From: Escherichia coli
Lineage (GTDB): Bacteria > Pseudomonadota > Gammaproteobacteria > Enterobacterales > Enterobacteriaceae
Assembly: GCF_003334385.1 (NCBI RefSeq)
Contig: NZ_QOWN01000005.1
DNA: 64,000 nt
Reading direction: 5' to 3' (one strand)
Part shown: positions 45,771 through 47,530 of the stretch, in pieces
Numbering within the stretch: the stretch's first letter is position 1
Layout: every line of letters starts with the position of its first letter
Position numbers: made by a program

Positions 45771-47530
45771 GAATGACGCGGTAACCCTCTTCACGCAGGG
45801 CTTTACACGCTTGCGCGCCAGAGTAGTCAAACTCACACGCCTGACCGATAACAATCGGGCCCGCACCCAGAATCAGGATACTTTTTATATCTGTACGTTT
45901 TGGCATGGCTCTTTTACTCCTGATTACTTAGCGGTTTTACGGTACTGCTCAATTAACTCGATAAAGTGGTCGAACAACGGCGCGGCGTCGTGTGGACCAG
46001 GGCTGGCTTCAGGGTGCCCCTGGAAGCTGAATGCCGGTTTATCGGTGCGATGAATGCCCTGTAACGTACCGTCGAACAGGGATTTATGCGTGACACGCAG
46101 GTTTGCAGGTAATATTGCTTCGTCCACCGCAAAACCGTGGTTCTGGGCGGTGATCATTACCACGTTTTTCTCCACATCTTTAACCGGATGGTTGCCGCCG
46201 TGGTGACCAAATTTCATTTTGACAGTCTTCGCACCGCTCGCCAGCGCCAGCAGCTGATGACCGAGACAGATGCCGAATACCGGAATATCGGTTTCGAGGA
46301 ATTTCTGGATGGCGGTAATGGCGTAATCGCACGGGGCCGGGTCGCCAGGACCGTTGGAGAGGAAGATGCCGTCTGGATTCATTTTCAGCACATCTTCCGC
46401 AGAAGTTTGCGCCGGAACGATGGTCAGGCGACAGCCTCTATCCACCAGCATCCGCAGGATGTTGCGCTTGGCACCAAAATCATAAGCCACGACGTGGAAC
46501 GGCAGCTCGTCTTCTTTTTTCGCTTCTGGCAGGCCACCGGTCAACGTCCAGCTCCCTTGTGTCCAGCTATAGGCTTCTGCGGTGGTCACTTCTTTTGCCA
46601 GATCCATGCCATTCAGACCTGGGAACGCGCGGGCTTTTTCTAACGCCAGCGCCGCATCCGGGTTATCGCCCGCGATAATGCAGCCATTCTGTGCGCCTTT
46701 CTCGCGCAGTAAACGCGTCAGCTTACGGGTATCGATATCGGCAATCGCCACGATGTTATGGCGTTTCAGGTAAGAAGAGAGGTCTTCGGTATTACGGAAG
46801 TTGCTGGCAATCAGCGGCAGGTCGCGAATCACCAGACCTTGTGCATGTACCTGAGAAGATTCTTCATCGGCGTCATTGGTGCCGACATTGCCAATATGGG
46901 GATAAGTAAGAGTAACGATTTGACGAGAATAGGAAGGATCAGTGAGGATTTCTTGATAACCGGTCATTGAAGTATTGAAAACGACTTCCCCAACCGCCGA
47001 ACCTGTTGCCCCTATGGCCCGACCGTGAAACTGGGTTCCGTCTTCCAGAACCAATAGCGCTGACTTAATCAAAACACCCTCCAGAGAATATTCACTCACT
47101 TTATTTGCATATTAATTCACAATGATGACGTAAATCAATGCAAATCTGCTTACCGACGAATTTCTGGCAAACGGCGGCATTCTGGAGATATGGGCGCTAA
47201 AAGTCAACTTAATGGCAGGATTTTTTATATTATTTTGTGGCTCATGCATGTTTTACAGGCATTAAGCGGCAAAAAGATCATATAACCTGTTCTGGAAAAC
47301 GCTTGCGCAGCAAGAAGATTGCATGAAATAAAAGCGAGTAGGGAAAAGTGGACCAAATGGTCAAAATTTACATTAAAACAACAAAAACCGAAGACAAAAC
47401 ATGTAATTTTTGGCACTTATAGACAATTTAAAAACATAACACTAAAAATAAAAGGGCCAAAAATTAAAGCCCTTTACAATCAATAAATTAAATGTGTTAT
47501 TTTTGCACCACAACAAATATTTTGTGGTTA

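Follow-up and report, generated by a model that had tools for sequence, protein, structure and literature searches.

The 455-bp spacer between dapB and carA (positions 47527 to 47073, minus strand) in a 64,000-nucleotide stretch of Escherichia coli DNA (contig NZ_QOWN01000005.1 of assembly GCF_003334385.1, hereafter the window) is almost certainly the complete cis-regulatory region of carAB, the minus-strand operon of carbamoyl-phosphate synthetase. Judged from the sequence, each of the cis elements known from this region is present, correctly spaced, non-random where this can be assessed, and under purifying selection. No evidence contradicting the identification was found among the analyses of this window. 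The carAB control region described here is already known and is a textbook case, and it brings no new biology. The tandem promoters P1 and P2 of the K-12 operon were reportedly described by Piette et al. and Bouvier et al. in 1984. Two such sigma-70 promoters, placed downstream of the dapB terminator, would drive the operon also in the window. Two sources of knowledge have to be distinguished throughout the text. The identity of the elements with those of K-12, the uniqueness of the tandem ArgR operator, and the conservation among 105 species and within E. coli come from the present analysis. Protein binding, the mechanism of repression and the promoter start sites are taken from the literature on K-12, the sequence of which is identical from P1 to the carA start; the regulation of carAB has been reviewed by Charlier et al. 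(2018, PMC6245113).

All the genes in this part of the window lie on the minus strand, and carB is the next gene after carA. The spacer is colinear with positions 29196–29650 of K-12 MG1655, with the same length and zero gaps (MG1655 position = 76723 − x, where x is the window coordinate). The two sequences differ by 11 single-base changes, each located at or upstream of position −45 of P1 (47217), and from −44 (47216) onwards, up to and including the carA start, they agree at every base. The ARG, PUR and RUT boxes are identical to those of K-12, and the GATC site and the IHF consensus are present. The changes fall in the dapB 3′ untranslated region (3′UTR), in the IHF footprint, in the PepA-wrapped segments and at the edge of the RutR footprint. 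The same gene order is general in the species: an 801-bp query covering the junction matched 5426 of the 5426 complete E. coli genomes, where the annotation always reads dapB followed by carA, and the closest deposited genome is that of strain L73 (99.9%). The A+T content of the spacer is 66%, as compared with 48% for the window.

The loci of other species were collected by a degenerate DNA pattern describing the first 12 carA codons, in which ATG, GTG or TTG was allowed at the start. This gave 120 loci (L002–L121), which span the Enterobacterales and include two from Vibrio. dapB is the upstream neighbour of carA in 106 species, and the spacer between them measures about 374–530 bp, mostly 445–500 bp. 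The footprint alignment comprises 105 species with a median identity to the window of 58%; the mean conservation of the individual sites is listed in Table 1, together with that of the segments between them. The within-species sample consisted of seven RefSeq E. coli strains taken across the identity range, with two divergent species representatives labelled 'E. coli' left out. In these strains, 64 of the 455 spacer positions are variable (14%), against 12 of 344 in the flanking coding sequence (3.5%), and the identity of the spacer to the window falls to as low as 91%. The variation is concentrated where PepA-wrapped DNA separates the RutR, PurR and promoter sites from one another; the PUR box, the RUT core and the stretch from P1 +1 up to the start of carA contain zero variable positions among the seven strains. 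By these comparisons, the spacer is a fast-evolving sequence in which the named sites are held constant.

The tandem ARG boxes and promoter P2

The first-pass annotation of this DNA had quoted a 34-nucleotide string, TGAATTAATATGCAAATAAAGTGAGTGAATATTC, as containing two ARG-box-like sequences immediately upstream of carA. The string occupies 47119..47086 of the minus strand, at a distance of 14 nt upstream from the start codon of carA, and it sits inside two 18-bp ARG boxes separated by a 3-bp gap. A scan with the 18-bp ARG-box consensus (WNTGAATWWWWATTCANW) did not place the boxes elsewhere. The ArgR operator is defined as two 18-bp boxes lying 2–3 bp apart, 39 bp in total (PMC4381063), and for P2 in particular as two 18-bp ARG boxes separated by 3 bp (PMC6245113). 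The operator in the window shares with the other operators of the arginine regulon the two imperfect palindromes, the 3-bp spacer and the overlap with the promoter of a regulon gene. Unlike those, it is preceded by a second promoter, P1, the transcripts of which continue through the operator, an arrangement described as unusual in the regulon (PMC6245113, PMC6524683).

Palindromes of this kind might also be chance matches in AT-rich intergenic DNA, with no ArgR operator present. The base composition of the spacer would favour such matches, and single boxes with at most three mismatches are indeed common, with 14 in the window against 6.7 expected. Because single boxes are not rare, the arrangement which defines the operator, that is two boxes 2–3 bp apart, was examined instead. 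The pair upstream of carA, with four mismatches in total, is the only one with six or fewer in the 64 kb. When the window was shuffled 200 times with its dinucleotides preserved, the best pair had six mismatches and appeared in one shuffle; pairs with five or fewer were found in 0 of these 200 shuffles, and also in 0 of 2000 in which only the AT-rich spacer was shuffled. Moreover, the distance from the tandem boxes to the carA start is 48–50 nt in nearly all of the 120 species. The pair is invariant in Escherichia despite the high polymorphism of the spacer, with no variation of ARG box 1 in E. coli or in the other Escherichia, and its sequence is that of the experimentally characterised K-12 operator. 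The explanation by chance is effectively refuted, and the probability left to it is negligible. The operator appears to be limited to the two boxes: no third in-phase ARG box was found, the neighbouring in-phase positions having 5–11 mismatches. A third box within the conserved TTTGCATTGATT block was considered separately and ruled out, with nine mismatches at the in-phase positions there.

The same conserved block contains two −35 candidates of promoter P2, TTGCAT and TTGATT. From the sequence, we infer that the P2 hexamers are TTGATT or TTGCAT combined with TAATAT. P2 was not reported by the promoter scan, in which TTGATT-17-TAATAT reaches 8 of 12 matches, below the threshold of the scan. 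The published distance between the two promoters is 67 nt, with the P2 start at P1 +68 (PMC6245113, PMC6524683). This position maps to 47105, inside ARG box 1, which covers P1 +52 to +69 and includes both the P2 start and the −10 candidate TAATAT. Relative to the P2 start mapped in this way, box 1 extends from about −16 to +2 and box 2 from about +6 to +23. The association of the ARG boxes with P2 proposed in the first-pass annotation stands, with the refinement that box 1 lies over the −10 region and the start and that box 2 is located downstream of the start.

The repression of P2 would proceed by the binding of one arginine-loaded ArgR hexamer to both boxes (47121..47083), which would cover the −10 element, the start and the early transcribed region. 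RNA polymerase would then be excluded from P2, while the polymerase coming from P1 would still pass. In the published model, the ArgR hexamer occupies both boxes on one face of the helix, P2 is repressed about 50-fold, and the polymerase initiated at P1 reads through (PMC6245113, PMC6524683).

Promoter P1 and its upstream sites

The published sites were mapped with P1 +1 at 47172, the G of GTTTGCC, which corresponds to the G of GUUUGC used as the reference in PMC6245113. The promoter scan independently returned TTGACT-17-CAGAAT at 47207..47179, which is P1. The start at 47172 equals MG1655 position 29551, the experimentally supported transcription start site (TSS) of the RNA catalogued as ES003, and in most species the motif [GA]TTTGCC precedes the start codon by 99–104 nt. 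When counted from this start, the published positions of the RUT box, the PUR box, the GATC site and the IHF site all land on matching sequence, in agreement with the described car promoter. The first-pass annotation had related an AT-rich stretch further upstream to the pyrimidine-regulated P1 region. The assignment to the control DNA of P1 stands, with the correction that the whole region of about 350 bp is concerned and no single element, and that it includes sites of IHF, PepA, RutR and PurR which had not been named.

P1 would be controlled by pyrimidines and purines through this upstream DNA, with IHF bound at its footprint, one PepA hexamer wrapping the adjacent segment, and RutR and PurR at their boxes. 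The T-run at the P1 start would permit UTP-sensitive reiterative transcription. According to the literature, RutR activates P1, an effect relieved by uracil, whereas PepA wrapping and the coupled PurR repress it and IHF modulates it; the GUUUGC start is the site of the reiterative transcription, and P1 is also controlled by ppGpp (PMC6245113).

The sites differ in how far their sequence identifies them. The RUT box is the best match to its consensus in the window. Within the PUR box, the central GCAA and CGTTT are at least 90% conserved in the 105 species. The exact IHF consensus AATCAATAAATTA is present on the plus strand at 47478..47490, within the published footprint, and the conservation of its core exceeds the spacer mean of 0.58. 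For PepA, we know of no sequence consensus that could be scanned for. The PepA zone contains two conserved islands, an A-tract block at 47236..47221 and TTTTTGC at 47275..47269. Methylation of the Dam site is blocked by the binding of PepA or IHF (PMC6245113), and the moderate conservation of GATC fits the published view of this site as a passive reporter of protein binding. A 63-amino-acid open reading frame (ORF) with a GTG start (47416..47225, minus strand) lies wholly within the spacer, over its least conserved part, and is probably spurious.

The identification of the spacer is subject to a few caveats. The matches to the PurR and IHF consensus occur at chance count, so that neither is significant as a motif alone; the support for these two sites therefore rests on their position and conservation. 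Among the changes relative to K-12, those at −170/−171 lie on the margin of the RutR footprint and those at −97/−110 in the PepA zone. Finally, PMC6245113 states that the ARG boxes 'partially overlap the -35 element' of P2, whereas the mapping by the 67-nt distance puts box 1 on the −10 element and the start.

Table 1. Features of the carAB control region and its flanks in the window. Positions relative to P1 are counted from its start at 47172.
Feature	Coordinates	Strand	Sequence and remarks	Mean conservation (105 species)
ARG box 1	47121..47104	-	TGTGAATTAATATGCAAA; 1 mismatch to the consensus, best match in the window	0.91
ARG box 2	47100..47083	-	AGTGAGTGAATATTCTCT; 3 mismatches to the consensus; 3 bp downstream of box 1	0.80
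Promoter P2, inferred core	47105..47144	-	TTTGCATTGATT block (−35 zone) 47144..47133; −10 candidate TAATAT 47114..47109; start near 47105	TTTGCATTGATT 0.96
Promoter P1	47207..47166	-	−35 TTGACT 47207..47202; 17-bp spacer; −10 CAGAAT 47184..47179; start G 47172 in GTTTGCC	−10 0.84; GTTTGCC 0.91
Dam site	47279..47276	-	GATC; A at −106	0.55
PUR box (PurR site)	47308..47293	-	GCGCAAGCGTTTTCCA; 16 bp, centred at −128.5; 3 mismatches to the purF-type consensus	0.73
RUT box (RutR activator site)	47364..47349	-	TTGACCATTTGGTCCA; −192..−177; 1 mismatch to TTGACCANNTGGTCAA	0.69
PepA-wrapped region	47452..47232	-	about 230 bp; −280..−60; one PepA hexamer (PMC6245113, PMC2655662)	
IHF footprint, published	47496..47459	-	−324..−287 (PMC6245113); 79% A+T	core 0.78
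Segments between named sites				0.34–0.47
Shine-Dalgarno sequence	47082..47078	-	GGAGG; 5 nt before the start codon; 100% conserved	1.00
carA coding sequence	45924..47072	-	TTG start 47072..47070	
P1 leader, first 53 nt (Rfam 'ES003 sRNA')	47172..47120	-	RF02750, 87.4 bits; gathering score 37	
dapB intrinsic terminator	47475..47444	-	AAAGGGCT / TTAATTTTT (9-nt loop) / GGCCCTTT, then TATTTTT	
dapB 3′UTR, decayed DapZ homologue	47527..47444	-	RF02551, 30.2 bits; gathering score 56	
dapB coding sequence	47528..48349	-	273 amino acids; stop TAA 47530..47528; from the ORF list, BLAST match and K-12 annotation	

The P1 leader and the carA start codon

The Rfam family of the ES003 small RNA (sRNA) matches, over its full length, the 53 nt with which the P1 leader begins (P1 +1 to +53), at the catalogued coordinates and with one difference from the consensus, at a lower-case (weakly conserved) position. 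ES003 was defined by RNA sequencing (RNA-seq) at MG1655 29551–29603; its 5′ end is a mapped TSS, it has no terminator, and its level is 133-fold lower in the stationary phase (PMC4676190). Such a sharply bounded species with its own TSS and a clear family match could represent an independent sRNA gene with its own function, the more so as its 3′ end abuts the upstream edge of ARG box 1. This is, however, unlikely. The 5′ end is the start of P1 itself, the 3′ end is formed without a terminator, and the drop in the stationary phase is what a ppGpp-sensitive P1 would give. The predicted fold is no better than that of shuffled sequences (z = −0.47), many species do not retain the base pairs proposed by Rfam, and conservation in the middle part of the RNA is only 0.58; the lack of both fold energy and pair conservation rules out a structured sRNA. 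A product of an ArgR roadblock is also disfavoured, since ArgR cannot block the polymerase initiated at P1 (PMC6245113, PMC6524683). We read ES003 as a leader fragment of the P1-initiated carAB mRNA rather than as a structured RNA gene. An even less likely case would be a regulated product instead of a fragment left by degradation or size selection, in which a premature 3′ end or the processing of P1 transcripts depends on ArgR bound at the P2 operator or on a predicted leader hairpin. If this were true, arginine would trim the read-through from the pyrimidine promoter, a layer missing from the published model.

The predicted fold of the full 100-nt P1 leader (47172..47073) is better than that of shuffles (z = −2.4). 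In this prediction, the conserved TTTGCAT block pairs with ATGCAAA of ARG box 1, forming a hairpin which can exist in P1 transcripts only. A second predicted hairpin, at the 3′ end of the leader, involves GGAGG.

The translation of carA would begin at TTG, 5 nt past GGAGG. This start had been named in the first-pass annotation, and both the translation and the PGAP annotation of five E. coli genomes give the same base; initiation at TTG is also documented in the literature (PMC6245113). The start codon is TTG in 120 of the 120 species loci, although the search pattern allowed ATG, GTG and TTG alike, and GGAGG is placed exactly 5 nt upstream of it in 119 of the 119 usable loci. Such invariance suggests selection for a weak start codon, going beyond mere tolerance. 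By the rule of the longest ORF, translation would instead start from an in-frame GTG further upstream (47099), where the mechanical ORF list begins a protein of 391 amino acids, and an in-frame GTG is present in many species. This GTG, however, is part of ARG box 2, has no Shine-Dalgarno sequence and is separated from the P2 start by only about 6 nt, and 23 species have no in-frame start upstream of TTG at all. Together with the invariant placement of GGAGG and the use of TTG in the PGAP and K-12 annotations, this makes the upstream start hardly conceivable.

The dapB terminator, its 3′UTR and the wider meaning

The first-pass annotation had also pointed to a terminator-like hairpin of dapB at about 47436–47477 on the minus strand, and an intrinsic terminator is found inside this range. 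Its fold energy is −13.1 kcal/mol (z = −3.2), equalled by 0 of 200 shuffles, with a stem of 7–8 pairs. The consensus terminator scan of the spacer gave no match; the hairpin was missed because its 9-nt loop exceeds the 8-nt limit of the scan. In 98 of 106 species, a hairpin followed by a T-run is present about 50 nt past the stop codon of dapB, and its stems differ between species yet pair, for example AGGGCAATA/TATTGCCCT, AGGGCGATA/TATCGCCCT and AGGGTGA/TCACCCT. The comparative data give good support for a real dapB terminator, at which the transcription of dapB would end. The hairpin shares the spacer with the car promoters, as had been noted, and more precisely it lies within the published P1 IHF footprint, which overlaps the 5′ stem and the loop of the terminator as well as the DapZ-homologous hairpin. 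The location of the terminator inside the footprint means that this DNA serves two purposes, and either role could explain the conservation of TTGATTG in the overlap.

The dapB 3′UTR corresponds in position to DapZ, an Hfq-dependent sRNA from the dapB 3′UTR of Salmonella, with which it shares the homologous terminator and the TTGATTG segment. The match of the Rfam DapZ family (RF02551) spans 47521..47444 and remains below the gathering score, while the same model reaches 60–100 bits in Salmonella, Raoultella, Citrobacter, Enterobacter, Kluyvera, Erwinia, Serratia, Pantoea and Hafnia; it finds no match in three other Escherichia loci (two 'E. coli' representatives and E. albertii). An exact copy of the seed GTGATGTGG occurs in 70 of 106 species, whereas the window reads TTGTTGTGGTGC. 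Compared with DapZ, the GU-rich seed CGUGAUGUGGUU has become UUGUUGUGGUGC, and the inner stem of the terminator is lost, also in Escherichia. The seed is degenerate and polymorphic in this genus, being UUGUUGUGGUG in the window, UUGUUAUGGUG in K-12, and UUGAGUUGAUG and UUGUAAUGGCG in other strains. The interpretation of the window 3′UTR as a DapZ gene is ruled out by the low score and the unconserved seed. From this distribution, DapZ looks ancestral to the Enterobacterales and decayed or lost in Escherichia. A separate observation concerns Salmonella enterica subsp. arizonae (locus L096, 5028–6553), in which two paralogous reverse-strand genes of 241 and 245 amino acids are located between dapB/DapZ and the car control region. 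With this insertion, the two lie about 2.2 kb apart, in contrast to the arrangement of E. coli and the majority of the other genera.

The recovery of this region indicates that a first-pass reading can recognise real regulatory DNA from the sequence alone. The carAB control region is among the most thoroughly dissected in bacteria, as it integrates arginine, pyrimidine, purine and ppGpp signals over two promoters. Further hallmarks are the wrapping of its DNA by the moonlighting aminopeptidase PepA and the UUG start codon, documented early. The details which the present analysis adds to this picture are descriptive and of minor interest: the TTG start does not vary throughout the order, DapZ appears to have been lost in Escherichia, the dapB terminator and the IHF footprint overlap, and ES003 is identical with the P1 leader.

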